Source: Gemmatimonadales bacterium (GTDB lineage Bacteria > Gemmatimonadota > Gemmatimonadetes > Gemmatimonadales > GWC2-71-9). From it: a stretch of DNA of 64,000 nt. Under the pieces are notes generated by a model, which had not been told where the DNA came from, made no database searches, and saw only the letters and a program-made list of their open reading frames with translations. Every line of letters begins with the position of its first letter. The first letter of the stretch is position 1. The translations under genes were made by a program, and so were the position numbers. This document shows, one piece after another, positions 11,223 through 51,563 of the stretch. The stretch spans positions 26,861 to 90,860 of the forward strand of contig JBFXAY010000005.1 of assembly GCA_050183815.1 (NCBI GenBank). Reading direction: 5' to 3'.

Positions 11223-12281
11223 TCAATCACCGCCCGCCTCTTCGCGGCTGGCGTGTCGGAGGGCCTTGACGAGTTCGTCGAGACGGCCGTCCATGATTTC
11301 ACTCAGGTTATACAGCGAGACGTTGATCCGGTGATCCGTGACCCGGCTCTGGGGAAAGTTGTAGGTCCGGATCTTGGCCGAACGGTCGCCGGTGCCCACC
11401 ATCGACTTCCGTTCGCGGGCCCGGGCGGACTCCTGTTCGGAAATCATCTTGTCGAGCAGGCGGGCGCGGAGCACCTCCATCGCCTTGATCTTGTTCTGGA
11501 GCTGGGATTTCTGATCCTGCTGTGAGACCACGATACCGGACGGCAGGTGGGTGATTCGCACGGCGCTGTCGGTGGTGTTGACGCTCTGCCCGCCCGGCCC
11601 CGAGGACCGGTAGACATCGATCCGGAGATCCTGCGGATCGATCTTGACGTCCACCTCTTCCGCCTCGGGCAGCACGGCGATCGTGGCCGCGGAGGTGTGG
11701 ATCCGTCCCTGGGCCTCGGTGGCGGGGACCCGCTGGACGCGGTGGACGCCGGATTCCCGGCGGAAGAGGCCGTAGGCATCCTCGCCCTTGATGGCGATGA
11801 TCGCCTCGCGGATGCCGCCGAGGACCCCGTCGCTCAGCGACAGGTGCTCCACCTTGAGCCCGTGCCGCTCCGCGAACCGCGTATACATCCGCAGGAGTTC
11901 GGCGGCGAACAGGGCGGCCTCGTCACCGCCGGTGCCGGCCCGAATCTCGACGATGGCATTGCGGTCCTCGAGCGGGTCTCTGGGCAGCAGCAGCTCGTCG
12001 AGTTCGGCCGTCATCCCTTCGAGCTCGCCGGTGAGCCGCTCGACGTCGGCGCGGGCCATCCCGGCGAGTTCGTCGTCGTCCGCGTCCGCCAGTTCGCGAG
12101 CGCCGGCCAGTTCCTCGGTCATCCGGAGATACTGGCCACCCAAACGCACGATGGGCGCGAGCCTCGAGTGCTCGCGCCCAAGGGCCTGACGGCGGGCGGG
12201 ATCTTTCGCGAGCGCGGGATCCCCGAGCTCGCGCGAGACCTCCTCCGCCCGGGCCATGGCCTGGCGGAGTTTGGCCTCCAC
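11223..12281 (-). CDS. prfA: peptide chain release factor 1
   Basis: GGQ motif (SGPGGQSVNTTDSAVRITHLPSG) and the RF1-type PxT tripeptide (VPATE). Confidence 0.95.
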   Translation of the reverse strand: MEAKLRQAMARAEEVSRELGDPALAKDPARRQALGREHSRLAPIVRLGGQYLRMTEELAGARELADADDDELAGMARADVERLTGELEGMTAELDELLLPRDPLEDRNAIVEIRAGTGGDEAALFAAELLRMYTRFAERHGLKVEHLSLSDGVLGGIREAIIAIKGEDAYGLFRRESGVHRVQRVPATEAQGRIHTSAATIAVLPEAEEVDVKIDPQDLRIDVYRSSGPGGQSVNTTDSAVRITHLPSGIVVSQQDQKSQLQNKIKAMEVLRARLLDKMISEQESARARERKSMVGTGDRSAKIRTYNFPQSRVTDHRINVSLYNLSEIMDGRLDELVKALRHASREEAGGD

Positions 12282-12284
12282 TAG

Positions 12285-12509
12285 CTACTCCTTGGCGGCC
12301 GGCGCGGCCTCCCTGGAGCCGTACTTCCGGCGGAACCGATCAACGCGGCCGGCCGTATCGACCAACCGCTGCTTGCCGGTGAAGTACGGATGGCACACCG
12401 CACAGACTTCGACGTGGATCGAGGCGGCCGTGGAACGGGTTTCGAACTCGTTCCCGCAGGCGCACTTCGCCATGATCTTGTGGTAGAGAGGATGGAGATT
12501 CGGCTTCAC
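12285..12509 (-). CDS. rpmE: 50S ribosomal protein L31
   Basis: VKPNLHPLYHKIMAKCACGNEFETRST...CAVCHPYFTGKQR, with a CxxC...CxxC zinc ribbon. GTG start with a GGAG about 7 nt upstream. Confidence 0.9.
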   Translation of the reverse strand: MKPNLHPLYHKIMAKCACGNEFETRSTAASIHVEVCAVCHPYFTGKQRLVDTAGRVDRFRRKYGSREAAPAAKE

Positions 12510-12694
12510 GGCGGACTCCGCACGGTAAATCGTTGAGCACGAACAACTTCTAGGCCCGAAAGCCAAGCCTCTAAAGCTAGCGGCCGACCCCCGTTGTGGC
12601 AAGAGAGGCCCCCCGGGCCACCGGAGGCGCCCAGCCACCCCTCGAAAGCCCGTAACTCGTTGTGTGACCTGCATCACCGGTCATTTCGGCCGTC

Positions 12695-12723
12695 TTGCCG
12701 CCCGGGCGGCGGGTCCCTATGCT
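12695..12723 (+). promoter_or_regulatory. candidate sigma70-type promoter giving a leaderless crp-family transcript
   Basis: TTGCCG (12695-12700), a 17-nt spacer, then TATGCT (12718-12723). The ATG at 12729 lies 6 nt after the -10 hexamer and has no Shine-Dalgarno. Confidence 0.3.
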
Positions 12724-12728
12724 GAACC

Positions 12729-13406
12729 ATGCCCGTTGCGATCGCCCCGGTGCTCCGGACCATCCCGCTGTTCCAGCATCTCGACCAGGCCGAGGTCGAA
12801 GCCCTGGCCGCGCTGTTCCGGGAACGGAGCTTCGCCCGCGGGAGCATCATCGTGTCCCAGGGAGACCCCGGCGACGCGATGTTCCTGATCGCCGACGGGC
12901 AGGTCAAGGTGGCGGTCTTCGGCGAGGACGGCCGGGAAGTGATTCTCGCCGTCCACTCCAACCGGGGCTTCTTCGGCGAGATGGCCCTGCTCGACGACGA
13001 GCCTCGTTCGGCCCACGTGATCGCGATGACCGACGCCCGGTTGTTGCAGCTTCGGCGGGAGGACTTCCGGAACCGGCTGCGGGCATCGCCCGACCTTGGC
13101 GTGGCGCTGCTGCGCGAGCTGTCGCGCCGGCTCCGCCGCGCCGACGAAACCATCGCCAGCATGGCACTCCTCGACGTCAACGGCCGGATCGCCCACCTGC
13201 TGCTGGAGATGGCCCGGGAAGAGGGCGGCAGCCGGATCACCCGGAAACTGACCCACGCCACCATTGCCCAGATGGTGGGTGCCAGCCGCGAAACGGTGAG
13301 CCGGACGATGCGCAGCCTGGCGGTCCAGGGGGTCATCGACGTGTCCCGCCGGGAGATCGTCCTCCGCAACCCTGACCAGCTCCGGATCGCGGCCCAGCGC
13401 ACCTGA
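12729..13406 (+). CDS. Crp/Fnr-family cyclic-nucleotide-binding transcriptional regulator
   Basis: cNMP-binding domain with FFGEMALLDDEPRSAHV (the FGE...RSA phosphate-binding cassette). C-terminal HTH: ATIAQMVGASRETVSRTMRSL. Confidence 0.9.
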   Translation: MPVAIAPVLRTIPLFQHLDQAEVEALAALFRERSFARGSIIVSQGDPGDAMFLIADGQVKVAVFGEDGREVILAVHSNRGFFGEMALLDDEPRSAHVIAMTDARLLQLRREDFRNRLRASPDLGVALLRELSRRLRRADETIASMALLDVNGRIAHLLLEMAREEGGSRITRKLTHATIAQMVGASRETVSRTMRSLAVQGVIDVSRREIVLRNPDQLRIAAQRT

Positions 13407-14263
13407 TGGCCGGGCTCTCCGTCACCTTCTGGGGCACCCGCGGATCCATCCCCACGCCGGGCCCTGGCACCGTCCGCTACGGCGGCAACACGCCCTGCCT
13501 CGCGGTGTCCGCCGGCGGGCGACAGCTCATCCTCGACGCCGGAACGGGCCTCCGGGCCTGCGGCCTCGCCGCGGCGCACACGAAGGACCGCGTCACGATC
13601 CTGCTCACTCACACCCACTGGGACCACATCCAGGGGCTTCCGTTCTTCGCGCCGCTCTACCGCCCGGGCGCCGCGATCTCGGTGGTCGGCCCCCGGCAGT
13701 CGGGCACGACGCTCGAAGCGATCCTCCACGCCCAGATGACCGAGACCGTGTTCCCGGTCCCGGCATCCGCGGTCGGCGCCACGCTCGCGGTGCGGGAAAT
13801 CGACGCCGAGGCATTCGCCGTCGACGGCTTCGAGATCGACGTTATCCGCAACTGTCATCCCGGCCCGACCTTGGGCTACGCCGTGCGCACCGGCGGCGGG
13901 AAGCCCCCGCTCGGTTACCTTACCGACAACGAACTCCGCTGCGACGATGCGGTGCGTCGCCGGACCGATTTCGTACGTTTCTTGCGTGGCGTCGAACTGC
14001 TGGTCCACGACGCGATGTACTTCGAGTCGGAAATCGGCCACCGGGCCGGTTGGGGCCATAGCACGGCGAGCGATGCGGTCCTGCTCGCCCTCGAGGCGGA
14101 GGCCGAGCGGCTGGTGCTGTTTCACCACGATCCCGGCCACGACGACGCCGCCCTCGAGCGGCTCCGCGAGGAAGCGGATGCCTGTCGGGTGCGCCAAGGC
14201 GGCACGCTCGACGTCACCATCGCGGTGGAAGGCGCCACGGTCCACTGCCAGGGAGGAGCATGA
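13406..14263 (+). CDS. MBL-fold metallo-hydrolase (possible cyclic-nucleotide phosphodiesterase)
   Basis: FWGTRGSIPTPG...YGGNTPC N-terminus and the HxHxDH motif (THTHWDHIQG). The start overlaps the crp-family stop (TGATG). Confidence 0.85.
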   Translation: MAGLSVTFWGTRGSIPTPGPGTVRYGGNTPCLAVSAGGRQLILDAGTGLRACGLAAAHTKDRVTILLTHTHWDHIQGLPFFAPLYRPGAAISVVGPRQSGTTLEAILHAQMTETVFPVPASAVGATLAVREIDAEAFAVDGFEIDVIRNCHPGPTLGYAVRTGGGKPPLGYLTDNELRCDDAVRRRTDFVRFLRGVELLVHDAMYFESEIGHRAGWGHSTASDAVLLALEAEAERLVLFHHDPGHDDAALERLREEADACRVRQGGTLDVTIAVEGATVHCQGGA

Positions 14264-14958
14264 TGAAACGGGCAACGTTCTTGATGGTGCTCTCGGCGCT
14301 GGCCGCGCCAGCCGTCGTCCGGGCCCAGGACAGCCGGCCCGGCCTGGCCGTGTTGCCGTTCGAGAACGGCGGCAGCTACGGCAAGGACAAGGAAGACTTC
14401 GATGCGCTGCGGCGCGGCATCGCGGCGATGATGATGTCCGAACTGAGCCAGAACCCAGCGGTCCGGCTGGTGGACCGCGAGCGGGTACAGCAGCTCCTCG
14501 ACGAGCAGGGGCTCGCGACGGCCGAGCGGGTGGACGCGCAAACGGCGGCCAAGGTCGGCAAGCTGGTGGGCGCCCGCTACATGATCGCGGGCACGTTCAT
14601 CGACCTGTACGGCGATTTCCGGATCGACGCGCGGATCATCGACGTCGAGACGAGCGAGATCATCAAGGTCGTTCGGAGCGATCCCAAGCTGTCCGACCGG
14701 AAGCAGATGTTCCGGATCATTCAGTCGGTGGCGGATCGGGTCATGGAGGGCACGAAACTGCCGCCCCTCCCGGCCGCCGCCACCCAGGCCCGGTCCCGGA
14801 ACGTTCCGACCGAGGCCCTGGCACTTTACAGCCGGGCCCTGCTCTACAAGGATCGCGGCGATACCAAGAAGGCGATCGAGTACTACAGCGCCGCGATCAA
14901 GGCGTTCCCGGCCTTCACCGAAGCCCAGGAAGGACTCAAGCGACTCGGCGGCGGCTGA
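14260..14958 (+). CDS. secreted CsgG/TolB_N-like domain protein with C-terminal TPR
   Basis: Signal peptide ending VVRAQD. LAVLPFENGG...VDRERVQQLLDEQGL...GARYMIAGTF...IDARIIDVETSEI pattern. TPR-like ALALYSRALLYKDRGDTKKAIEYYSAAIKAFPAF. ATGA overlap with the MBL gene. Confidence 0.7.
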   Translation: MMKRATFLMVLSALAAPAVVRAQDSRPGLAVLPFENGGSYGKDKEDFDALRRGIAAMMMSELSQNPAVRLVDRERVQQLLDEQGLATAERVDAQTAAKVGKLVGARYMIAGTFIDLYGDFRIDARIIDVETSEIIKVVRSDPKLSDRKQMFRIIQSVADRVMEGTKLPPLPAAATQARSRNVPTEALALYSRALLYKDRGDTKKAIEYYSAAIKAFPAFTEAQEGLKRLGGG

Positions 14959-16249
14959 GCCGATCCGCCTCCGCAACGGGGCCGGGACCGGAAACGGTGC
15001 CGGCCCCGATCGCTTTCAGGCCGAGGAGCAAGCCGGTGTGGATCGGGAGCAGGAAGGCGATCATGTCGCGGTTGGATTGCACCCCGCCGATCAGATTGAG
15101 GAGCAGCCCGGCGGCGCTCACGATCACCACGGCGGCCGCCAGCCGGGTGGCGAGGGGAAGGCGGGTCCGGCTCCGCCACAGCGCCGAGGGCAGGACGAAC
15201 GCCAGCAGCAGCGATATCACGTTGAGTTGGAGGACATTCTCGTTCCCATAGCTGAACCGATGGTCGGTCAGGGCCCAGAGAAACGCGAGGAGCAGTCCTC
15301 CCACCCCGGCGAAAAAGGCCCACGCCGCGGCCGCCGAGCCGAATGCCAGCCGCCAACCGCTGCCCCGCCGCCCCAGAACGCCCAACAGACCGAGCGCCAT
15401 TCCAAGCAGCCCGCCCACCGCGAGGTATCCGCCGGTCCAGTCGTGAGGACGCTCCGCCACCGAGAAGCGGTCGTTCTCCACGACGTGCCGGCTTTCCCGT
15501 ACCAGCGGGTGAACCCGGCCGTCCGGGTCGGTCACCACCAGGCGATCGAGATACGGCCGGAGCTCGATCGGCAGGAACATGGCCTTCCACGCCGTGATCG
15601 GCCGGTCGGTCGGCCGGCCCAGGCCCAGCATCAGGGCCGTGTACATGAATGGGTCGTTCTCGGTGGTGCGCCGGGTGTGATCCCGGTAACTCATGTCGGT
15701 GCGGATCGTGTCGGCCCAGGCCTGGAGTTGGCCGCCGATCACCGCGTCGAGCGCGTCGCGGATCCGGGTCGAACAGTTGTCGGTGTAGTAGTTGTATCGG
15801 TAGACCCGGTTCTCCTCGCGCATGTTCCAGAGGAGGAACCGCTGGAGTCGGCCCCGGGCGGCCGCCGGGAGGTCGAGTTCCTGAGACCAGATGGAACGGT
15901 CCGCCGCCGTGTAGGCCCGGAAATAGGCGTCACCCGATCCGGCCCCCATCGAATAGTCCATCAGACCCCGGGCAAAGCGGCCGACGAATCGGAGCTGATC
16001 GCCGAAGGTGCGGCCGAAGTCGAACCGGCCGTAGTCGAAGGCGACGTCCCGGCCCGAGCGATTGTCACGAATCAACAAAGCATTGTGACCGAACCGCTCC
16101 CAGACGATCTCACCTGGATCGAAAGTAAGGAGATAGACGGTCAGGTCCGCCCCCAGCGCCGAGTCCGTCGGCTCGGCAGGGAGCATCCGGATCTCGGCCG
16201 GGGCCTGGGCCGTCAGCAACGCGGCCGCCAGTCCGGCGAGAGTGATCAC
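14936..16249 (-). CDS. DUF4105 (Lnb N-terminal periplasmic domain)-family membrane protein
   Basis: Signal peptide, FGHNALLIRD motif typical of DUF4105, and four or more C-terminal TM helices. Convergent 23-nt overlap with the preceding gene. Confidence 0.75.
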   Translation of the reverse strand: MITLAGLAAALLTAQAPAEIRMLPAEPTDSALGADLTVYLLTFDPGEIVWERFGHNALLIRDNRSGRDVAFDYGRFDFGRTFGDQLRFVGRFARGLMDYSMGAGSGDAYFRAYTAADRSIWSQELDLPAAARGRLQRFLLWNMREENRVYRYNYYTDNCSTRIRDALDAVIGGQLQAWADTIRTDMSYRDHTRRTTENDPFMYTALMLGLGRPTDRPITAWKAMFLPIELRPYLDRLVVTDPDGRVHPLVRESRHVVENDRFSVAERPHDWTGGYLAVGGLLGMALGLLGVLGRRGSGWRLAFGSAAAAWAFFAGVGGLLLAFLWALTDHRFSYGNENVLQLNVISLLLAFVLPSALWRSRTRLPLATRLAAAVVIVSAAGLLLNLIGGVQSNRDMIAFLLPIHTGLLLGLKAIGAGTVSGPGPVAEADRLSRRRVA

Positions 16250-41828: not shown

Positions 41829-42173
41829 TTACGGCCGGCGCTCGCGGCGGAGCGCCGCGCCGACGAGACCGCCGCCAAGACCGAGGCCCCCGGCGATCGC
41901 GAGGGTCAGGATCACCAGCACGCCCGCCGACTGCCCGGTCACACCGCGAAGGAGTTCGACGAGCGTGTCGAACCGCGGTGCGGTCGCCGCCCGGAGCAGC
42001 AGCAGCCCCCACCCCACCACGACGCCCGCCACGGCCACCGCCACCGGTCGCCGCCCCGGGGGGACCAGCCACCCGGAGACCAGGGCGACCACCGGCAGGA
42101 TCCACCACCCCAGCATCGCCGTCAGGAGTGCCGCCACCGCCGCGGTGCCCGTCACCCCGAGCAGAGCACCCAT
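41829..42173 (-). CDS. small hydrophobic membrane protein (about 4 TM helices)
   Basis: The ATG at 42173 overlaps the acylase stop (TGATG). The sequence is almost entirely Gly/Ala/Val/Leu TM segments. Confidence 0.5.
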   Translation of the reverse strand: MGALLGVTGTAAVAALLTAMLGWWILPVVALVSGWLVPPGRRPVAVAVAGVVVGWGLLLLRAATAPRFDTLVELLRGVTGQSAGVLVILTLAIAGGLGLGGGLVGAALRRERRP

Positions 42174-44644
42174 CACCGGCCACCGCCCTGCAACCGGAGG
42201 CGACTCTCCACGGCCGCCGCCGGGAACCCAGCCGGATCGGCCGGCACCACGAGCGAGTCGAGGTGGCCGGCCTGCCACCGGGAGACCAGGTCGCGATAGT
42301 GCCGGCTGACCGGATTGCCTGACTGCCCGCCGGGATACACCGCCCAGGCCCGCACCGGGTCGCTCAGTTCGACGACCATCCGCCAGCTCGCCCCGTGAGT
42401 CCCCGCGCCGGACGAGGGACTCACCGTGCCGGTACCCCACGCTACGGGAAGCCGCAGGGCCGACAACGCCGGCAGGCGCATCGGGTGGTAGATGTTGGCC
42501 TGGTGAACGGTCCCCCACTCCCAGGCCGGACCTCGGGGACCGTAGCGACTGACGGTGGAATCGAATCCGGCCGCGAGCGCCGATCGAATGATCTGGTCGC
42601 GTCCTTCGCGTTCCGGGGTGTCACGCCGGTCCCACCAGATGCTTTCGGCGTCGGCGAGCAGGCCGAGGAGCACCCCGTCGGACGGGCGCAATCCGCCGGC
42701 CCGTCCCGGGGTCTGCAGCTCGTCCCACAGTCGCCGCCCCAGCTCCCGCGTCACGGCGTCGAACAGCACTGCGTCCCGGGTGTCGAGGCCGTACCGATGG
42801 TCCCAGTCCTCGAGCAGCCGGCGGGCGCGCTCGGCACTCGAGTCGCCCGCCGTCGGTACCGCGAGCAGGATCGGCAACACGGCGTCGGCGAAGCCGCTTC
42901 GGTTGTCGGTCTGGATCCGGCGCATCGCTTCCGGGGTGACGGCCGAGTCCTCCCGCAGCAGTTGATTGATTCGCAGCGCCCGCCAGGGGCTCGGCCAGTC
43001 GGCGCCGAGATAGCGGCCGTTGCGCGCGGGATCGACGGGCTGCTGATTGGCCGACGAAAGGAACCCCCGCCCCGGGTTAAGGCCGAACGGATAAAGGTCG
43101 AGCGGCAGATCGCCGGTCCAGTCGGCCGCGCGGGTGGTGCCGTCGCGCACCACGTCGCCGCGACCGTCGCCCGGACGGACCGGATAGGTCCCGGTTGAGC
43201 GGATGGCGATGGTACCCCGGCGGTCCGCCACGAGCATGTTCTGCGCGGGGGCTACGTACCCGGCCATCGCCTCGAGAAACTCGCCGGCGGTGCGGGCCCG
43301 GTTGGCTTCGAGAAATTCCTTGCCGTCGGCGTGGGGCAGATAGGCCGTCCAGGCCACCGAGAGCCAGGTCGAATCGACCGCCAGCAGCGGTCCGCGGTGG
43401 GTGAATCGCGTGGTGTCGATGGCCAGGACGTTGCCGTCCGGTCCGAGAAAGGTCTCGGTGCGCTGTTCGACGGGGCGCCAGTCGCCGTCGAGCCAATACC
43501 GGGCCGGGTGGGCCGGGTCGTCGACCCGCTCCCGATAGAAATCGTTGACGTCCGACCCGGTGTTCGTAAGCGACCAGGCGATCGACCGGTTGAACCCGAT
43601 GATGACACCGGGCGCGCCGGGCAGGGTGGCGCCCGCCACGTCCAGCTTCCCCGGGACGACAAGGTGGGCCTGGTACCAGATTGACGGCAGCGTCAGCGCG
43701 AGGTGCGGATCGCCGGCCAGGAGGGCAGCTCCCGCCGCCGTGCGGGACGGTGCCACCGCCCAGTTGTTGCTGCCGAGGACCACCTCTTCCTCGCCCCAGC
43801 GGACGCTGCCCAATTGCCGGCGGGCGGCGTCGAATGTAGCCCCGAGCGCCAGCATGCCGGAGTCCGGCGGGCCGGGCGGCGGCAACGGCGCGAAGGAGTA
43901 CCGCGGCCCATCGACCGGATTCGGCTGAATCGGTTCTTGAATGGGCTCGTTGATCGGGAAGAGCGCGTCCGCCGCCGGGGCACCGACCAGGGCAGCCGCC
44001 CGGGCCTTGAGGAGCGACGGGTCGTTCCAGGCCAGATCCCGCGCCATCCGGCCGAATAGCAGGTAGCTGTTCCGCGGTTCCCAGCGTTCGGGCCGCCGGC
44101 CGATCAGCCGGTACTCCAGCGGCACGTCGCCGGGCCCCATCCGGTCGAGCCAGGCGTTGACTCCGGCGGCGTAGGCCTCGATGGCCCGGAAGGCGAAGCT
44201 CGTCGAGTCCGCCTGTGCGAGCCGCTGGTCCGCGAGGCGCCCCAGACCCAGCCGGCGGGCCTCGCGGTCGAGATCGAGCGCCTGGGTGCCGAACCATTCC
44301 GTCAGCCGGCCCGCCGCCGCCCGGGTCTGCAATTCGAGTTGGAAGAGCCGGTCGCGGGCCACGACGAAACCGAGCGCCCGGTAGGCGTCCAGTTCGGACC
44401 CGGCGTAGACGTGCGGGACCCCGCGATCGTCGTAGACGACCTCGGCGTCGGCGTCGAGGGACGGGAGCGACAGGGACTCCGACGGGCGCCGCTCGGCCGC
44501 GCGGGCGGCAGCCCAGACCCCGCCCCCGGGGTCGAGGAGCGGGCCGAGGGGCGGCAGCGGGCCGAGCCGGCGGGTGAGGAGCACGAAGGCCCCCGCGAGC
44601 AACGACAGCCCGGTCGCGAATGTGAGAAGCCGGCGAGGCGACAT
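42173..44644 (-). CDS. penicillin acylase-family Ntn hydrolase (S45), secreted
   Basis: Signal/TM at the N-terminus. Autoprocessing site ...VVLGSNNWAV (Ser nucleophile of the beta subunit). 823 aa, typical for this family. Confidence 0.9.
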   Translation of the reverse strand: MSPRRLLTFATGLSLLAGAFVLLTRRLGPLPPLGPLLDPGGGVWAAARAAERRPSESLSLPSLDADAEVVYDDRGVPHVYAGSELDAYRALGFVVARDRLFQLELQTRAAAGRLTEWFGTQALDLDREARRLGLGRLADQRLAQADSTSFAFRAIEAYAAGVNAWLDRMGPGDVPLEYRLIGRRPERWEPRNSYLLFGRMARDLAWNDPSLLKARAAALVGAPAADALFPINEPIQEPIQPNPVDGPRYSFAPLPPPGPPDSGMLALGATFDAARRQLGSVRWGEEEVVLGSNNWAVAPSRTAAGAALLAGDPHLALTLPSIWYQAHLVVPGKLDVAGATLPGAPGVIIGFNRSIAWSLTNTGSDVNDFYRERVDDPAHPARYWLDGDWRPVEQRTETFLGPDGNVLAIDTTRFTHRGPLLAVDSTWLSVAWTAYLPHADGKEFLEANRARTAGEFLEAMAGYVAPAQNMLVADRRGTIAIRSTGTYPVRPGDGRGDVVRDGTTRAADWTGDLPLDLYPFGLNPGRGFLSSANQQPVDPARNGRYLGADWPSPWRALRINQLLREDSAVTPEAMRRIQTDNRSGFADAVLPILLAVPTAGDSSAERARRLLEDWDHRYGLDTRDAVLFDAVTRELGRRLWDELQTPGRAGGLRPSDGVLLGLLADAESIWWDRRDTPEREGRDQIIRSALAAGFDSTVSRYGPRGPAWEWGTVHQANIYHPMRLPALSALRLPVAWGTGTVSPSSGAGTHGASWRMVVELSDPVRAWAVYPGGQSGNPVSRHYRDLVSRWQAGHLDSLVVPADPAGFPAAAVESRLRLQGGGR

Positions 44645-44674: not shown

Positions 44675-45991
44675 CTAGATCAGTGCCCGCCGCTTGAGAC
44701 CAACGTAGCAGTCTACGACGGCTTTCGCTGCCGCCTCCGGATGGGCATCCACGACGATCACGCCGCGAGAGCGGAGATCGGCCAACGCGTCGTTGCGAAC
44801 GAGGAGCAACTGCTCGGCCGCCGCCCGTTCGAAGGCGGATTCCACCGTGCTCGCCGAGGCCACGGCGAGCCGCTCGAGCGCCAGGTCGCGAAGGGTCACG
44901 GCCACCGGCACGTGGCGCGGACGGAGCCCGCCGAGCTGGTGCACGAGGGCATCGCTGGCGAACCGGTCGATGACGTCGGTGAAGAGCACGGTCAGGGCCC
45001 GCTTCCGTGCCTGGGCCGCCAGAAAAGCGAACGCCCGCGGGTAGTCGGATTCCACCAGCCGCCCCTCGACCAGCGCCAGCGCGTCGAGAATGGCGCGGAG
45101 CGCCCGCCGCCCGCGCACTGGCGGCACGAAATGATCGATGTCGTCCGAAAAGACGATGAGCCCGACGTCGTCGTCGAGCCCGACCGCCCGATAGGCGAGC
45201 TGCGCTACCGCCTCCACGGCATCCTCGAGGCGGGGCCGACCCTCCGTTTCCGCGGTGAGCATCCGGCCGGCATCGAGCGCGATCATCACCCGCTGCCGCC
45301 GCTCGGCTTCGTACTGTCGGGCGATGAGCTTGCCGCGCTTGGCCGAGGCCTTCCAGTCCACCGCCCGCATCTCGTCGCCGGGGACCCACTCGCGGAGACT
45401 CTCGAAGAGGCGCCCCTCCCCGATCCGCCGGACCTGACGAAGTCCGACCTCCCGGCGAATCCGGCTCTGCGTCGGCAACTGGGCCAGCGCGGCGTTACGG
45501 AGCGCCGGGTACACTGTGATCTCCCAATCGGGACGGAGCACGAGCTGCCGCCAGCAGAGGCCCCAGGGCCCCGCCACCCGGATGTCGAACCGCCACCGGC
45601 GGGCCCGGCCCCGGGCCCGGGGGTCGAGGCGTCGCTCCTCGATCCAATCGCGGTCCGCCCGCAGATCGATGATCCGGTCACTGCCGTCCGGCAGACCGAT
45701 TTCGGGCGGGGCGGATTCGCGCACCCAGAGGCGGGCCGAACGCGGGCTGTGCCAGTGATATCGAACCGGCAACGGCCGCCCGAGCGACAGGGCACCGGCC
45801 GCGGTGCGGATCAGGGAGAGACGGCTCGCGTCGAAGCGGTTCACCCGATACCCATCGACCGCCAGCATCAGGACCCAGAGCACCGAGGCCGTTACCCAGG
45901 CCACCGCTGCGGCCGGCCACCAGACGGCCCCGACGGCAATCGCGCCGGCGAGCAGCGCCCCGAGCAACCACCGCCGCGAGGGAACGATCAC
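44675..45991 (-). CDS. DUF58 (vWA-like) protein with two N-terminal TM helices
   Basis: REWVPGDEMRAVDWKASAKRGKLIARQYEAERRQRVMIALDAG is the DUF58 signature. GTGA overlap with the MoxR gene. Confidence 0.85.
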   Translation of the reverse strand: MIVPSRRWLLGALLAGAIAVGAVWWPAAAVAWVTASVLWVLMLAVDGYRVNRFDASRLSLIRTAAGALSLGRPLPVRYHWHSPRSARLWVRESAPPEIGLPDGSDRIIDLRADRDWIEERRLDPRARGRARRWRFDIRVAGPWGLCWRQLVLRPDWEITVYPALRNAALAQLPTQSRIRREVGLRQVRRIGEGRLFESLREWVPGDEMRAVDWKASAKRGKLIARQYEAERRQRVMIALDAGRMLTAETEGRPRLEDAVEAVAQLAYRAVGLDDDVGLIVFSDDIDHFVPPVRGRRALRAILDALALVEGRLVESDYPRAFAFLAAQARKRALTVLFTDVIDRFASDALVHQLGGLRPRHVPVAVTLRDLALERLAVASASTVESAFERAAAEQLLLVRNDALADLRSRGVIVVDAHPEAAAKAVVDCYVGLKRRALI

Positions 45992-46971
45992 TGCCGCGGG
46001 GCCTCGATGGCATCGAGCACCGAGGCGAGCGCCGCGTCGGGGGTCACCCCCTCGAGTTCCAGTTCCGGCGCCACCATCACCCGGTGCCGCAACACCGCGG
46101 GCGCGAGGGATTTCACGTCGTCCGGAATGACGAAGGTCCGGCCCTCCGCGGCGGCCGCCGCTTGCGCGAGTTTGAGCAGGGCCACACTCGCCCGCGGGGA
46201 GGCGCCGAGGGTGAAGGCCGGCGCGTCGCGGGTCGCCCGAACGAGCGCGGTGATGTACTCGACCAGCGGCGGTTCGGCCCGAACCCGGGCCACCGCCGCC
46301 TGGAGTGCGGCGATCCCGTCCCGATCCGCGACCGGCGTCACCCCGAACGTTTCGGTGGCCGCCGGGTCGAACCCGCCCAGCACCCGGTCCAGGAGACCAC
46401 GCTCCGCCTCGGCGTCTGGGTAACCGATGATGCTCTTCACCAGGAAGCGGTCGAGTTCGGCTTCGGGCAGCGGGTAAGTACCCTCGAACTCGATCGGGTT
46501 CTGGGTGGCGAACACCGTGAAGGCGGCCGAGAGGCGGTGCGCCTCGCCGTCGACCGTGACGGTGCGCTCCTGCATCGCTTCGAGCAGAGCCGCCTGGGTC
46601 TTGGCGGGGGCGCGGTTGATCTCGTCGGCCAGCACGAGATCGGCGAACACAGGGCCGGGCCGGAACGTGAACTGGGCGCCGCCGGTCATGATGTTGACGC
46701 CGGTGAGGTCCGCGGGCATCAGGTCCGGAGTGAACTGGATCCGCCGGAAGTCGAGCGACAGCGCCTGGGCCAGGGTGCGGACCAGCAGCGTCTTGGCCGT
46801 CCCGGGCGGGCCTTCCAGCAGCACGTGCCCCCGGGCCAGGAGCGCGAGGACGACCTCGCGGACCACGGCGCGCTGTCCGAGCACCACCCGCTCGAGGGCG
46901 CCGGCGAGCGCGGCAATCCGTTCGGCCGCATCCTGGGCCGCGTCAGGGCTCAGGAACTCATCTCGTTCCAC
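45988..46971 (-). CDS. MoxR-family AAA+ ATPase
   Basis: Walker A LLEGPPGTAKT, Walker B VLADEINRAPAKTQAALLEAMQE, and TVFATQNPIEFEGTYPLPEAELDRF. Confidence 0.9.
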   Translation of the reverse strand: MERDEFLSPDAAQDAAERIAALAGALERVVLGQRAVVREVVLALLARGHVLLEGPPGTAKTLLVRTLAQALSLDFRRIQFTPDLMPADLTGVNIMTGGAQFTFRPGPVFADLVLADEINRAPAKTQAALLEAMQERTVTVDGEAHRLSAAFTVFATQNPIEFEGTYPLPEAELDRFLVKSIIGYPDAEAERGLLDRVLGGFDPAATETFGVTPVADRDGIAALQAAVARVRAEPPLVEYITALVRATRDAPAFTLGASPRASVALLKLAQAAAAAEGRTFVIPDDVKSLAPAVLRHRVMVAPELELEGVTPDAALASVLDAIEAPRQ

Positions 46972-48173
46972 ATGTCCTCCACGAGGTTTGCCGCCGTGAG
47001 TACATCACTTTCGGACGGCTGCGGGCGATCGAGCGCCTCGAGCCGCTGTCCGAGTGCTACCACCTTCTGGTTGCGGGTCCGGTGCCGGATCTGTTCGAGC
47101 CAGGACCGCCAGGAATCCCGCTGCCCGCTGCTCGGGCGGCCGAGCCGCCGCCGGACGCCACCGACGAGGAGCCCGATCGCCAGGCCGTGACCGCCGGCCG
47201 CCCGGAGGGCGGCCGCGAGGGCCCGCACGTGCTCGGCCACGGAGCGCCGCCGCCGGTCGAACGCCTCGACCGGCGGGCCGAACCGGACGGCGCCGGCAGC
47301 GAGCGCCAGCAGGCCGACCACGATGGCATGCCAGACGAGCCAGCCCCACGGCGACCGCGCGGCCCACTCCATCACGAAATCGACCATCGAGCCGCCCTCG
47401 GAGAATCCATGGCGGAACTCGTCGAACCAGACGACCTGATAGTCGAGCAGCCAGGGCAGCACGACTGCGCCGGCGTCGGTTTCCCGGAGCGTCTGATTGC
47501 GAAACAGCCCGACATCCCCGACCAGGGTGACCGTACCGGAGCCGCCGGGCGGCCGCAGGCGAACCGCCACCGGGGAGCCTCCGGCCGTCAGCAGCGTGTC
47601 CACCGGCACCCCGCGCACGACGTCGCAACGATAGACGAGCGCGTCACTCAGGCGGCTCGAATCCACGACCTCGCTCTCGGTCGTTTCGCGAAGCGCGAGC
47701 CGCACCCTCGGTGCCGGCAGCCGGCCGTCCGGACGGTCCACGGGCGTGACGGCGTCCGGCACCGGTCGGCTGCCGCGATCGAGGCGGAGCGTGTCGAACC
47801 CGAGGCATCGGAGGACCGCGCGGGTGGTCGATCCCGCGAACAGCAGCGAGACGCCGCGGCGCGGCAATTCGAGCAACGCATCGACATCGGAGCCGGACAC
47901 CGGCCGGGAGGGATTCAGGAGGATCACCGCAGTGGCCGATCCGGAATCCATCATGGTCGCGAAACGCTCCTGGCGGAGTTCCCGAACGTCCACGCCGAGG
48001 CGGCGGGCCGCTTCCGCCACGGCAGAGGCCCCGTTCGGCTCAGTGATCAGCGTCGAGGGCCGGACATCCGCGCCCGGCGTCGGCCGGCGGCGGGTCCCGG
48101 CGTTGGCCACGATCAACGCCAGCAACGCGATCAGCGCGAGGGTCCCGATGAGGAACCTACGATCCGGGGACAT
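46950..48173 (-). CDS. DUF4350-domain membrane protein
   Basis: N-terminal TM helix FLIGTLALIALLALIVA, a periplasmic alpha/beta-like domain, a second TM helix WLVWHAIVVGLLALAAG and a helical C-terminus. The ATG at 48173 is inside the 46950..48245 ORF. Confidence 0.75.
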   Translation of the reverse strand: MSPDRRFLIGTLALIALLALIVANAGTRRRPTPGADVRPSTLITEPNGASAVAEAARRLGVDVRELRQERFATMMDSGSATAVILLNPSRPVSGSDVDALLELPRRGVSLLFAGSTTRAVLRCLGFDTLRLDRGSRPVPDAVTPVDRPDGRLPAPRVRLALRETTESEVVDSSRLSDALVYRCDVVRGVPVDTLLTAGGSPVAVRLRPPGGSGTVTLVGDVGLFRNQTLRETDAGAVVLPWLLDYQVVWFDEFRHGFSEGGSMVDFVMEWAARSPWGWLVWHAIVVGLLALAAGAVRFGPPVEAFDRRRRSVAEHVRALAAALRAAGGHGLAIGLLVGGVRRRLGRPSSGQRDSWRSWLEQIRHRTRNQKVVALGQRLEALDRPQPSESDVLTAANLVEDMWNEMSS

Positions 48174-48777
48174 AGCGCTCCGCGGCGGCGCGGGCCGTCC
48201 AGTCGTCGAGTTCGGCGGGCCCGCACGGCGTACCGCCGAAGGCAAAGCGATAGAGATCCTTCACCAGATCGGCGAACGGACCGCGCTGAGGATCGGCGGC
48301 GGGGAAATCGGCGAGATACTCCTGCGGCGTCCGGCTCGGATGAAAGCGGAGGCGTCCCCGGGTATCGAGTTCCAGCACCAGCCGGACGAACTCGGCCTGC
48401 ATCGCGGCCGCGAACCGGCCGGCCGCCCGGTGCCGGGCGGCCAGCGCGGCAAACCACCCGGCGTCCCGAACCTCGGCCCTGCCCCGCGCGGTGCCGGTCC
48501 CGGCCGGGACCGCCCGAGCGCGGGTCGTCCGGATCAGGAGCCAGACCGCGTGCAGGGCGATAGCGGCGAGCACCGCCACCAGCAGGTAGACGACGACCTT
48601 GAACGCGGCCGGGTGGCGCTCCGCCAGATCGTAGAACCAGTCCACGACGGCCCGCCGCCAGCGCCGCAACGTCACCGTGGCCGACGACTCGTCCTGCCAC
48701 TGGTAGGCAGTGCCCTGGAACACGTCCGCGACGACCCGCCGCAGCGAGTCCGCGGCGACGCCATCCGGTCCCTGCAC
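48157..48777 (-). CDS. DUF4129-domain membrane protein
   Basis: TM helix VVVYLLVAVLAAIALHAVWLLI. C-terminal FHPSRTPQEYLADF...LVKDLYRFAFGG matches the DUF4129 pattern. The GTG start abuts the upstream stop. Confidence 0.75.
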   Translation of the reverse strand: MQGPDGVAADSLRRVVADVFQGTAYQWQDESSATVTLRRWRRAVVDWFYDLAERHPAAFKVVVYLLVAVLAAIALHAVWLLIRTTRARAVPAGTGTARGRAEVRDAGWFAALAARHRAAGRFAAAMQAEFVRLVLELDTRGRLRFHPSRTPQEYLADFPAADPQRGPFADLVKDLYRFAFGGTPCGPAELDDWTARAAAERYVPGS

Positions 48778-49548
48778 TCAGAGCGCCTCGAGCTGCGACT
48801 CGAGGATCTCGAGGTCGAATCCTTCCTTGCGGACCCGGAGGTCGTAGTACAGCACGGTAACGGCCGAATAGATGAACGGGTAGACCAGCACCGACAGGAC
48901 GGCGGAGACCGCCGCGATGACGAGCACGCCGGTCGTCACGCTCGAACTCCCCAACCCGAGCACCAGCCCGGCCACGCCTCCGATGAACACCGCGACGAAG
49001 CTCACCATATAGACGAGCAGGAGCGCCACCAGCAGCGTGCCGAACACCTTCCACCGATGTCCCTTGGTCAGGTTCCACGACCGGTTGAGCGAGTCGATCG
49101 GCGACAGACCTTCGACCACCAGCGCACACGCGGAGACCGCGACGCCGGTACCGATCACGATCCCCGGAATCACCAGGAGCAGGAAACCGATCCCGACGAT
49201 CAGGGTGGAGACCATGGACAGGACGATGATCTTGCCGAGGTGCGGCACCACCCAGCCGATCGCCGCGGCGGCCTGCACTTCCCGGCCCAGATAGGCGTCC
49301 GCCACGATCTTGGTGGAGGCGCCCATGCCGACCGCCGTACAGATCATCCCGACGACCAGCGACGCCCCCCACAGGGCCGGATGCTCGAGCAGCCCGCCGC
49401 TCGCCTCAACGAAGACGGACAGCAGAATCGCGGCGGCCTGGCTGATCATCGCCACTGTGGCCAGCGCCACGAAGTGCTTGCGATAGAGGGAAAAGGCGAC
49501 GTCGAGCACTTCGCCGATCGCCAGGGGCCTGAGTTGCGCTTCCGTCAT
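48778..49548 (-). CDS. polytopic membrane protein (GPDPase_memb/YciC-like topology, about 6 TM helices)
   Basis: The ATG at 49548 is inside the 908-aa ORF 48778..51504. MTEAQLRPLAIGEVLDVAFSLYRKHF... followed by six hydrophobic segments. The C-terminus YYDLRVRKEGFDLEILESQL is typical of this family. Confidence 0.7.
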   Translation of the reverse strand: MTEAQLRPLAIGEVLDVAFSLYRKHFVALATVAMISQAAAILLSVFVEASGGLLEHPALWGASLVVGMICTAVGMGASTKIVADAYLGREVQAAAAIGWVVPHLGKIIVLSMVSTLIVGIGFLLLVIPGIVIGTGVAVSACALVVEGLSPIDSLNRSWNLTKGHRWKVFGTLLVALLLVYMVSFVAVFIGGVAGLVLGLGSSSVTTGVLVIAAVSAVLSVLVYPFIYSAVTVLYYDLRVRKEGFDLEILESQLEAL

Positions 49549-49647
49549 GGGGAATCTCCGCCGCTGGGGTTCGCCGCCGGTAGGCCGAATTCTCACCCAC
49601 GGGTCCCGACTTGGGAAGGCCACCCCGGGGTTCCTAGATTGGGGACA

Positions 49648-51438
49648 ATGCCCGCTCCGCCTTCGCTCCGGCCCCGCCGGGCGACCCGCCCCGAAACCGC
49701 CCAGGACCACAGGCAGCGGCTCGAGGTCGAGACCCCCGAGAACGTCGTCCTCGACTACGAGCTCGGCGGCTTCGGCTCGCGCCTCCTCGCGGCCCTGATC
49801 GATGCGGCCATCGTGGTCGTCTCGCTCGTCACCCTGTTCCTCCTCGCGGCGTGGCTCGGCGGAACGGGCAATTGGACCGGGGTGATCGGCTCGATCCTGA
49901 GCTTCGTGGCGGTCTGGGGCTACTACGCGCTGTTCGAGGGCTTCTATCGGGGCCAGACACCGGGCAAGAAATCGCTCGGCCTCCGGGTGCTTCGGGATTC
50001 GGGACAGCCGATCGGCTTTGCCGAGGCGGCCCTCCGCAACCTGGTTAGGGTCGCCGACTTCCTCCCGCCCCCGTTTCTCCTCGGCCTCGGCATGATCGCC
50101 TTTCACCCCCGGGCCAAGCGCCTCGGCGACCTCGTCGCCGGCACCGTGGTGGTGCGGGATCGGCCCCAGGAAGGCGGCCTCGCCCGCCCGACCCCCGCCC
50201 CGCCGGGAACGGAACCGGCCGCTCGCATCGGCGCCGAGGGCCCGCGACTGTCGGACGAAGAGTTCCGGGTGCTCGGTGCCTTCCTCGAGCGGGCGGCCGG
50301 GTTCGAGAAGGCGGTTCGGGAGCGGTTCGCCGGCCGGCTCATCGAGCGGTTCGCCGACCGGATTCCGGCGGGAGCCGGCGGGTCCGAGGCCCTCCTGGAT
50401 CTCTACACCGAGGAAACCGCCCGGCGGAGCCGCCCGGGCGGCGGCGGCCCGGGCCATGGTCCGGCCGACCGTTTCGTCCGGCAGAAGGAAGGCAGGTGGG
50501 CCGAGTTCCAGACACTGGCCGAAGCCGCTGCGGCGGGCGGACTGGATCGCTTTCCGCCCGACCGGCTCGTCGACTTCACGACCCGCTATCGCGAGGTCGC
50601 CGCCGACTACGCTCGCGCCCGAACCTACGGCGTCGCCCCGGGCACCATTCGCGCGCTCGAGCGCGCGGTGGCGGCAGGACACAACGCCCTCTACCGCGAG
50701 AAGAGTGCGTCGTGGCAGCGCCTCTGGCGCTTTCTCACGACCGATTGTCCCGCCGCGGTCGTCGAGGCCCGCCTGGCCGTGGGCCTGGCCTTTCTCACGT
50801 TCGCCGTCCCGGCGCTGATGGGGTTTGCCTTGCTCCGGGAACGGCCGGACGTGGCGCCTCAGGTCCTCCCGGCGACGATGCTGGACCGGGCCGACGCCGG
50901 CGCCCGGCGCCAAGCCGAAGGCAAGGGATACTTCGAGGCCGACCCGGGCGACCGGCCGCTCGTGGCCACGAGCATCATTCTCAACAACGTCCGGGTCGCG
51001 TTCGCCTGCTTCGCCTCCGGGGTGTTTGCCGGGGTCGGTTCGCTCGTGCTGCTGGCCGTGAACGGCCTCTCCATTGGAGCCGCGAGCGGCCACTTCGCCA
51101 ACAAGGGACTGTTCGGCTACCTCTGGACGTTCGTGATCGGCCACGGTTTCCTGGAACTGTTCGCGATCTGGGTGGCGGGCGCCGCCGGGTTCCAACTCGG
51201 CTTCGCGATTCTCAATCCGGGCCGCTTCCGCCGCCGTGACGCGCTGGCCCGGGCCGGCCAGCGGGCGATTCGCATGGTCGGCACCGCGACCCTCCTCCTG
51301 ATCATCGCCGGACTGGTCGAAGGCCTGGTCTCCGCCAGCGGCCTCGGTCTTCTCCCCAAAGCGTCGATCAGCGTCGGCAGCGCCCTGTTCCTGGTGGCCT
51401 ACCTCGCCCTCGGGGCCCGGAACGCGCGCGCCGCCTGA
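49648..51438 (+). CDS. fusion protein: N-terminal RDD domain + C-terminal SpoIIM-like (DUF95) membrane domain
   Basis: The ATG at 49648 is inside the 1230-aa ORF 47746..51438. RDD-family pattern (GSRLLAALIDAAIV..., QTPGKKSLGLRVLRDSG, KRLGDLVAGTVVVRD). DUF95 pattern (ILNNVRVAFACFASGVFAGVGSLVLLAVNGLSIG, IGHGFLELFAIWVAGAAG). No stop codon between the two halves. Confidence 0.8.
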   Translation: MPAPPSLRPRRATRPETAQDHRQRLEVETPENVVLDYELGGFGSRLLAALIDAAIVVVSLVTLFLLAAWLGGTGNWTGVIGSILSFVAVWGYYALFEGFYRGQTPGKKSLGLRVLRDSGQPIGFAEAALRNLVRVADFLPPPFLLGLGMIAFHPRAKRLGDLVAGTVVVRDRPQEGGLARPTPAPPGTEPAARIGAEGPRLSDEEFRVLGAFLERAAGFEKAVRERFAGRLIERFADRIPAGAGGSEALLDLYTEETARRSRPGGGGPGHGPADRFVRQKEGRWAEFQTLAEAAAAGGLDRFPPDRLVDFTTRYREVAADYARARTYGVAPGTIRALERAVAAGHNALYREKSASWQRLWRFLTTDCPAAVVEARLAVGLAFLTFAVPALMGFALLRERPDVAPQVLPATMLDRADAGARRQAEGKGYFEADPGDRPLVATSIILNNVRVAFACFASGVFAGVGSLVLLAVNGLSIGAASGHFANKGLFGYLWTFVIGHGFLELFAIWVAGAAGFQLGFAILNPGRFRRRDALARAGQRAIRMVGTATLLLIIAGLVEGLVSASGLGLLPKASISVGSALFLVAYLALGARNARAA

Positions 51439-51473
51439 GTCCGGCTTGCGGGCATCCCTCCGGCGCCGTAGCG

Positions 51474-51483
51474 TTGTATACAA
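51474..51483. promoter_or_regulatory. TTGTATACAA perfect palindrome (GntR/FadR-type t.GT...AC.a operator candidate)
   Basis: 10-bp self-complementary AT-rich site 81 nt upstream of the deacylase start. A GntR-family gene is in the same operon. Confidence 0.45.
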
Positions 51484-51563
51484 ATCTGTTCTCCAGTGGC
51501 GCACCCGGCGTCGTCGGGGCCACTCGGACTACCCGCTTCTCCACCCTCGACCCCGAAAACCCG

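Follow-up and report, generated by a model that had tools for sequence, protein, structure and literature searches.

A candidate membrane-tethered MoxR-DUF58 remodelling system with an RDD::SpoIIM fusion in Gemmatimonadales, one member of a widespread and uncharacterised gene set

What does a MoxR ATPase do when every gene that accompanies it specifies a membrane protein? The question is raised by six genes at positions 44675 to 51438 of a 64-kb stretch of DNA (contig JBFXAY010000005.1, GC content ~70%) from the metagenome-assembled genome of a Gemmatimonadales bacterium, the whole of this stretch being called the window below. Five of them, encoding a polytopic membrane protein, a DUF4129 protein, a DUF4350 protein, the MoxR ATPase and a DUF58 protein, run together on the minus strand, and the sixth, an RDD::SpoIIM fusion, diverges from them. 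The cluster belongs, as an ordinary example with a lineage-specific RDD::SpoIIM fusion, to a system that is recognised and annotated in many genomes but uncharacterised; on balance it probably encodes a MoxR-vWA remodelling motor that is anchored on the cytoplasmic side of the inner membrane, and acts on its co-encoded membrane partners in the envelope.

The arrangement of the genes points to a single unit. The operon opens with the polytopic protein of about six transmembrane (TM) segments (256 aa, 48778-49548, minus strand, ATG start), followed on the same strand by the single-pass DUF4129 membrane protein (206 aa, 48157-48777, GTG start), the DUF4350 protein (407 aa, 46950-48173, ATG start), the MoxR AAA+ ATPase (327 aa, 45988-46971, GTG start) and the DUF58 protein (438 aa, 44675-45991, GTG start). 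The successive genes abut at 48778/48777 (0 nt) and then overlap by 17, 22 and 4 nt, the 4-nt overlap being that of the adjacent MoxR and DUF58 genes, and good Shine-Dalgarno sequences precede the polytopic first gene (GGAGA) and the MoxR GTG (GGAGG). A divergent intergenic region of 99 bp (49549-49647), which probably holds promoters for both transcription units, separates this run from the RDD::DUF8413::SpoIIM fusion (596 aa, 49648-51438, plus strand, ATG start). These coordinates, the divergent layout, the junctions and the gap, together with translational coupling of the run, are exactly as proposed in an earlier sequence-only reading of the window. The longest open reading frame of DUF4350 extends upstream to a TTG at 48245, and the ATG at 48173 was taken as its start; on contigs with an identical DUF4350, independent public gene calls yield products of 596, 256, 206 and 407 aa, with the same DUF4350 start. 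Very long open reading frames, such as 47746-51438 (+) and 48778-51504 (-), were rejected as extensions of real genes in GC-rich DNA.

The family assignments of that reading hold in profile searches, all the families named above scoring over their Pfam gathering thresholds: DUF58 (3.4e-28, 98.8 bits), DUF4350 (1.2e-15, 58.7 bits), DUF4129 (4.9e-7, 30.1 bits against a cut-off of 24.8), UPF0259 for the polytopic protein (1.5e-8, 35.2 bits), RDD (6.9e-22, 78.6 bits) and SpoIIM (1.1e-33, 116.9 bits), as well as the AAA_3 and AAA_lid_2 domains of MoxR. A hydropathy scan finds TM segments in all five partners, and none in MoxR, so that each partner of the ATPase is a predicted membrane protein, as had been claimed.

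Could such an association be fortuitous? One genome per species was scanned with a DUF4350 alignment (the pattern used in the contig scan, EHV[RQ]ALAxAL, being lineage-specific), and partners were found by local phmmer on open reading frames. Among the resulting 80 Gemmatimonadota loci, in which DUF4350 identity is 35-52%, DUF4350 is present in 80, MoxR in 79, DUF4129 in 76, the YciC-like polytopic protein in 75, DUF58 in 72 and RDD::SpoIIM in 71, nearly all missing partners being explained by contig ends. Gene order is identical, with RDD::SpoIIM divergent, throughout, and the fusion is present in 71 of the 71 loci that reach this gene. The flanks of the window are not conserved (penicillin amidase in 1 of 80 loci, amidohydrolase in none of 80), and since the same set keeps the same order while its flanks vary, the six-gene arrangement is not due to chance. 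Beyond RDD::SpoIIM, rho, ruvX and mltG (YceG) are found in about half of the loci (~29-37 of 71; for example L064:3431-6185, minus strand), and this adjacency places the cluster at a stable core-genome position rather than in an island; the neighbourhood itself is probably housekeeping synteny with no functional link. The genome of the window has instead an amidohydrolase, a GntR regulator and an amino-acid permease at this place.

Another variation concerns 8 of the 80 loci, where one or two tandem Peptidase_M1 genes are inserted, in the same orientation, between the MoxR and DUF58 genes (L018:12162-14072 (+), L006, L019, L025, L033 with 12231-14129 and 14126-16057, L036, L051 and L053). The inserted proteins of ~640 aa carry a signal peptide and match the family above gathering score (E 1e-9 to 1e-11), and no Peptidase_M1 homologue is present in the whole 64-kb window.

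To what extent does the set occur in other phyla? Searches of genome contigs with the DUF4350 alignment returned Gemmatimonadota only, plus one locus (L061, JBLMWC010000161.1) in a metagenome-assembled genome labelled 'Bacillota bacterium', which is of the Gemmatimonadota type, with 41% DUF4350 identity and a fused RDD::SpoIIM; its Bacillota label is probably a binning or labelling error. No match was obtained by tblastn of DUF4350 against plasmids. Loci of other phyla were found by tblastn with DUF58 against a plasmid and chromid collection. In Nonomuraea gerenzanensis (L082), all seven genes are present and Pfam-confirmed (DUF4350 1e-29), with SpoIIM on the opposite strand and a polytopic counterpart that matches GPDPase_memb and DUF7847; our own profile searches recover the same set in Nocardia farcinica (L086). 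A Rhizobium chromid (L085) and Paracoccus encode DUF805, diverged DUF4129 and DUF4350 proteins, MoxR, DUF58, SpoIIM and RDD on one strand, L085 being the one record examined for the set among 68 Rhizobium records with a DUF58 match, most of which align over the same long stretch. Catenovulum (Gammaproteobacteria) carries RDD, SpoIIM, a hypothetical protein, DUF4350, MoxR and DUF58. The PGAP names of a Mycobacterium chelonae cluster correspond to the same set, with orthologues MAB_0386c-0392c and Rv3689-Rv3695 (PMC8191103). Co-conservation outside the lineage, which the sequence-only reading had expected, is thus observed: the gene set travels together across Gemmatimonadota, Actinomycetota, Alphaproteobacteria and Gammaproteobacteria.

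The actinobacterial loci (Rv3689-Rv3695 / MAB_0386c-0392c, Nonomuraea and Nocardia) share both the families and the core order of the window, namely polytopic membrane protein, DUF4129, DUF4350, MoxR and DUF58, then adjoining SpoIIM and RDD. The two groups are not close in sequence: their DUF58 has the D-x-G-R motif of the window protein at an identity of only ~30%, and the Gemmatimonadota DUF4350 profile misses the Nonomuraea DUF4350, whereas Pfam detects it. The other difference is that RDD and SpoIIM, one 596-aa fusion in the window, are encoded by two neighbouring genes in Nonomuraea, Nocardia, Paracoccus, Rhizobium and Catenovulum; that they are fused in Gemmatimonadota and separate neighbours elsewhere speaks for a functional link. 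In M. chelonae, the block BB28_RS01830-01900 (the cluster plus glpK, glpF and a PadR regulator) is down by log2 6-9 in a double lysogen (PMC8191103), which looks like loss of the region more than regulation; these RNA-seq data were not used as evidence of co-regulation, and the table served for gene content only.

What kind of motor is it? Judged from its sequence, MoxR is an intact, soluble AAA+ ATPase of the MRP / AAA_3 branch, for which a hexameric state and ATPase activity are predicted. It matches AAA_3 (PF07726) over the full profile (1-131; 2.8e-60, 202 bits) and AAA_lid_2 (PF17863, 3.5e-21), and the Walker A (GPPGTAKT), Walker B (LADEINR(A)) and sensor (FATQNP) motifs are kept in an alignment of 78 sequences. 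Among solved chains, 2r44_A comes closest (E 2.3e-66, residues 22-320), followed by midasin and RavA, and the protein belongs to the 2r44 branch rather than to those of NorQ/CbbQ or RavA.

The DUF58 protein, in which the motif WVPGDEMRAVDWKASAKRGKL was found as had been quoted (along with the Walker motifs of MoxR), is the candidate adaptor. Its VWA_2 match falls just under threshold (26.0 bits for a cut-off of 27), and most of its homologues carry a precomputed annotation of both VWA_2 and DUF58. An AlphaFold2 (AF2) model (pLDDT 82.3, pTM 0.75) is laid out as a TM hairpin (6-51), a beta-sandwich (59-161), a signature segment (171-229) and a vWA fold (234-434); the hydropathy scan puts the TM segments at 9-27 and 27-45, with positive charges on both sides of the hairpin, and this N-terminal hairpin would leave the beta-sandwich and the vWA domain in the cytoplasm, beside MoxR. 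Foldseek relates the vWA domain to Rpn10 (E 3.7e-6), NorD of NorQD (9qhd_G, E 4.4e-6) and Ku80, and the beta-sandwich to the macroglobulin (MG) domains of complement C3/C4/C5. The signature GEGR.FES..EWVPGD..R.IDWKA.AR.GK...RQYE.ERRQ (residues 171-229, window 45307-45481) is the most invariant segment of the protein. It is also the sole part with a pLDDT under 50, despite an alignment of 118 sequences, and to go by the model its folding may depend on a partner, for instance the MoxR ring. The canonical metal-ion-dependent adhesion site (MIDAS, DxSxS...T...D) is absent: at beta1 the protein has D-A-G-R-M/L, which does not vary in alignments of 66-118 sequences, with D-T-G-R, D-T-G-H, D-S-G-R and D-S-G-K in the Actinomycetota, Alphaproteobacteria and Gammaproteobacteria (D-x-G-[R/H/K] overall), and the (T/S)D of beta4 is the only canonical remnant.

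A MoxR gene beside that of a vWA-fold partner is also the arrangement of NorQ/NorD, CbbQ/CbbO and RavA/ViaA. In the best-studied pairs, a hexamer is associated with one vWA adaptor that plugs the ring, another domain of the adaptor selects the client, and this client is remodelled and not threaded (PMC9976466). By analogy, such pairs are likely to provide the template for motor-adaptor cooperation here. They have, however, a known soluble or membrane client enzyme and an intact MIDAS, whereas the adaptor of the window has its own TM hairpin, and its presumed clients are the four co-encoded membrane proteins. The Bat (Bacteroides aerotolerance) operon (MoxR, DUF58, DUF4381, BatA, BatB, BatD) likewise opens with an MRP-type MoxR followed by DUF58, all the rest being membrane proteins. 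Its partners are vWA membrane proteins and BatD, not DUF4350, DUF4129, RDD or SpoIIM, and by Pfam the window has no BatA/BatB, tetratricopeptide-repeat BatC or BatD. The Bat-type DUF58 of the Rhizobium plasmid pR132501 (312 aa) aligns with ~23% of the window DUF58 query. It has no DxSxS either, and it lacks the TM hairpin and the beta-sandwich, an absence which fits the N-terminal part of the window protein as a specificity element.

The earlier reading had listed chaperone, metal-insertion and conflict roles for MoxR-vWA pairs in general. Of these, the remodelling chaperone is the one favoured here, and it is very unlikely that the cluster is a conflict or anti-phage system, or a chaperone that inserts a metal cofactor as in the NorQD, CoxDE and MoxR-methanol-dehydrogenase types. 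Both uses have precedents (PMC7159879, PMC9976466), and MoxR has a Pfam match to bpMoxR (2.5e-12) below its top one. PADLOC returns only weak generic P-loop matches of MoxR (TRIP13, mad8, IetA) and none for the other five proteins, and Pfam finds no effector, nuclease, protease, beta-propeller or toxin domain in the products. The cluster is, moreover, near-universal and vertically stable in Gemmatimonadales and, unlike a defence island, has rho/ruvX/mltG as neighbours in about half of the loci. Cofactor insertion is opposed by the non-canonical MIDAS of DUF58 and by the absence of any client enzyme gene conserved beside the cluster in the 80 loci.

The membrane partners indicate where the motor may act. 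In the AF2 model of the DUF4350 protein (pLDDT 87.1), a first TM helix is followed by an alpha/beta domain (50-251), a second TM helix (275-298) and a cytoplasmic helical bundle (312-406). The best Foldseek match is the N-terminal domain of IFT52 (5fms_B, E 2.4e-4, TMt 0.55), then come GH42/GH164 domains and glutamine amidotransferases (GATases); on this model the alpha/beta domain is a periplasmic GldG/IFT52-like (GIFT, class-I-GATase-like) domain, in line with the relation to GldG that HHpred had indicated in 2015 (PMC5898192). It has two invariant cysteines, a sequence pattern that fits a periplasmic disulfide, and amidotransferase activity would not be expected, since C123 lies at a helix end and not at a nucleophile elbow. 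The strongest conservation is not periplasmic: it lies in a cytoplasmic juxtamembrane stretch, RFGP..RRRRS..EHVRALA.AL.AA.GH (residues 297-345), for which reason the tail is a possible contact of the motor, and the protein ends in a conserved acidic VED.W.E motif. The Pfam DUF4350 model spans the periplasmic domain only, and this best-conserved tail (297-407, window 46950-47285) is unannotated.

The same DUF4350 layout (N-terminal signal or TM segment, extracytoplasmic GldG-like flavodoxin-like domain, C-terminal TM segment) is found in archaea, where arCOG01314 (DUF4350) neighbours MoxR (COG0714) and Ig-like/vWA genes (PMC5898192). Makarova et al. (2015) described these DUF4350, MoxR and vWA operons in archaea and 'several bacteria', and predicted a novel secretion or membrane-remodelling system (PMC5898192). 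Is the cluster of the window, then, a protein secretion system, with the membrane proteins as its export conduit and MoxR as its source of power or control? Membrane and extracytoplasmic proteins make up most of the set, DUF4350 resembles the GldG of a gliding and type IX-linked ABC system (PMC5898192), a GIFT fold similarity that Foldseek confirms, and SpoIIM-family proteins are required for the production of circular bacteriocins (PMC5695211). Nevertheless, we regard this as unlikely. In or beside the cluster, the 80 loci of these diderm Gemmatimonadota have no conserved substrate gene or outer-membrane component, and the MoxR ATPases studied so far act on folded clients, which they remodel by way of a vWA adaptor instead of threading them (PMC9976466). 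The archaeal loci also encode S-layer-like membrane proteins with Ig domains (arCOG02884 and others), which are part of the 2015 model and are not found in the cluster, whose sole Ig-like module is the DUF58 beta-sandwich; conversely, DUF4129, the YciC-like protein and RDD::SpoIIM belong to the window set and not to the archaeal one. Finally, the vWA protein is secreted in the 2015 model, whereas the TM hairpin of DUF58 implies a membrane-anchored, cytoplasmic protein.

The DUF4129 protein has one TM segment (57-75 in the hydropathy scan) followed by RTTRAR, and its C-terminal helical domain, with an invariant T150-P151-x-E153, is probably cytoplasmic. Its profile gives 3390 hits (E<=1e-3) among 1.84 billion representative proteins. 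The database also holds apparent fusions of DUF4129 with DUF4350 (P0366, 449 aa), with DUF4350 and part of MoxR (P0370, 900 aa), and with an unidentified N-terminal extension (P0258, 474 aa), which may be real or may be gene-call merges across short overlaps; P0366 and P0370, where the 17-nt overlap may be concerned, are not relied on here. DUF4129 is known as the C-terminal domain of TgpA-type transglutaminases, and this brings in another reading, that of a membrane-proximal quality-control or degradation system like the MoxR-vWA-transglutaminase-like (YebA/TgpA) operons, in which MoxR would unfold a protein of the membrane or envelope that is then cleaved. A degradation role was predicted by Zhang and Aravind (2012) for this sister MoxR-vWA-transglutaminase operon (PMC3495828), MoxR and a DUF58-type vWA protein are common to both clusters, and the secreted M1-family metallopeptidases are encoded between just these two genes in 8 of the 80 loci. 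Such a role is quite improbable here, as judged from three observations: Pfam finds no peptidase or transglutaminase (Transglut_core) domain in the six products, the M1 peptidase is absent from 72 of the 80 loci and from the window, and its signal peptide would place it on the opposite side of the membrane from MoxR.

The polytopic protein is of the UPF0259 / YciC / DUF7847 / GPDPase_memb kind, with precomputed UPF0259 and DUF7847 annotation; it matches the NCBIfam YciC model at 3.8e-9, far under the cut-off of that family. Its termini are conserved, as LRPLS.GE.LD at the N-terminus and YYDLRVRKEGFDLE at the C-terminus. Like DUF4129 and RDD::SpoIIM, it is an integral membrane protein that has conserved regions on the cytoplasmic side. 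Profiles of DUF4350, DUF4129, DUF58, RDD::SpoIIM and the YciC-like protein gave no credible match among PDB sequences. A docking module shared by DUF4350, DUF4129, the RDD-SpoIIM linker and the N-domain of DUF58 was considered and rejected, all hhalign probabilities being under 2%.

The fusion consists of an RDD membrane domain, a cytoplasmic helical linker (~195-368) and a multi-TM SpoIIM domain (formerly DUF95); the linker is the recent Pfam family DUF8413, and precomputed annotation of the 596-aa product lists RDD, DUF8413 and SpoIIM. A pattern of polar residues, N..N..HGxxE..E, is invariant in SpoIIM from Gemmatimonadota, Actinomycetota, Alphaproteobacteria and Gammaproteobacteria; the positions in the window protein are N447, N472, H499-G500, E503 and E558, in or near TM helices (residues 446-559, window 50983-51324), and this conservation points to a site of binding or catalysis, in a family that is regarded as a scaffold. 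The SpoIIM of the Bacillus SpoIIDMP complex and the DUF95 proteins of circular bacteriocins (As-48C, LcyD) belong to the same Pfam family (PF01944) as the C-terminal half of the fusion. The cluster and its flanks have no homologue of SpoIID or SpoIIP, and the cluster has no bacteriocin precursor. In Bacillus engulfment, SpoIIM is a scaffold for peptidoglycan hydrolases (PMC5898192), DUF95/SpoIIM proteins are needed in the maturation of, and immunity to, circular bacteriocins (PMC5695211), and in M. tuberculosis the SpoIIM-like Rv3694c and the RDD protein Rv3695 were co-purified with the divisome protein Rv0954 (PMC8093794); these weaker leads are those on which the assignment to the envelope is based. 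SpoIIM homologues beside vWA and COG0714 genes were noted in bacteria by Makarova et al. (2015), who left this context unexplained (PMC5898192), and the SpoIIM of the window is of this type, being joined to RDD and encoded beside MoxR and DUF58.

How would such a tethered motor work? By analogy with NorQ/NorD and CbbQ/CbbO, one DUF58 protein would dock on the MoxR hexamer through its vWA domain, and the target would be chosen by the system-specific beta-sandwich together with the invariant signature segment. ATP hydrolysis would then assemble, disassemble or switch a complex of DUF4350, DUF4129, the YciC-like protein and RDD-SpoIIM via their cytoplasmic helical domains, and the periplasmic output would pass through the GIFT domain of DUF4350 and a module of SpoIIM-type scaffold and RDD. 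This output would most likely position or regulate envelope processing (of peptidoglycan, glycan or an exported polypeptide), which is the weakest step of the scheme.

Several points weigh against this scheme, in which the choice of the membrane protein that DUF58 would contact is a guess. The replacement of DxSxS by D-x-G-[R/H/K] implies that the target-binding chemistry of NorD and CbbO is not simply transferable, and the secondary-structure summary of the DUF58 model has no long vWA 'finger'. The cytoplasmic domains of the partners are mutually unrelated by hhalign, which leaves no common docking module. The conserved set includes no envelope enzyme, the M1 peptidase being restricted to 8 of 80 loci, and mltG (~29 of 71 loci) lies past rho and ruvX, probably through housekeeping synteny.

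A bolder variant would make the cluster an uncharacterised envelope machine, in which the motor transmits ATP-driven changes across the inner membrane via the DUF4350 and DUF4129 tails, and so drives a periplasmic GIFT assembly and an intramembrane SpoIIM/RDD module. Within this variant, which is conceivable and rather doubtful, the conserved N..N..HGxxE..E residues of SpoIIM could be a catalytic or substrate site.

How the motor of the preferred reading and its partners are expressed can be approached from the divergent gap. On the operon strand it contains TTCCCA-N17-GAGAAT, with related TTCCCA...CATCTT motifs at other loci. On the other strand, a TAGATT ends 7 nt upstream of the RDD::SpoIIM ATG, and a Shine-Dalgarno sequence is absent there, features from which the mRNA may be leaderless. 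Motifs of the form TAAT(C/G)(A/T)TA, similar to TAGATT, adjoin the RDD::SpoIIM start in many other loci. A scan of this ~70% GC DNA for a strict sigma-70 consensus and for terminators gave nothing useful, and missed the TTCCCA and TAGATT motifs. At the other end of the operon, a gene of the penicillin-amidase family (42173-44644, minus strand, E 4.5e-194) begins 30 nt beyond the DUF58 stop on the same strand. Given this spacing, with no terminator-like site in between, it may be co-transcribed with the operon in this genome; the adjacency of penicillin amidase and DUF58 is otherwise found only in the closest relative, L001.

Full-text literature searches found no experimentally characterised function for the gene set, as the sequence-only reading had supposed. 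Its term 'undescribed' was nevertheless too strong, the set being experimentally uncharacterised and partly predicted in silico in 2015 (PMC5898192). A bioRxiv screen of DUF complexes that matched 'DUF58' was set aside as irrelevant, since it concerns DUF5819.

For a specialist, nothing here is greatly surprising. To our knowledge, MoxR-DUF58 operons are among the commonest prokaryotic AAA+ gene pairs without a known mechanism. The seven-family version occurs in M. tuberculosis, Streptomyces relatives, rhizobia and many soil phyla, and to this the present analysis adds a parts list with topology, the Rosetta-stone fusion of RDD and SpoIIM, and the conserved cytoplasmic face of DUF4350. The same set is present in genetically tractable hosts, such as mycobacteria and Rhizobium leguminosarum with its chromids. 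Should the doubtful envelope-machine variant prove true, the cluster would represent a new energy-coupled inner-membrane system, and a new class of energy-coupled envelope assembly or export common to Actinomycetota, Proteobacteria and Gemmatimonadota, with a related form in Archaea.

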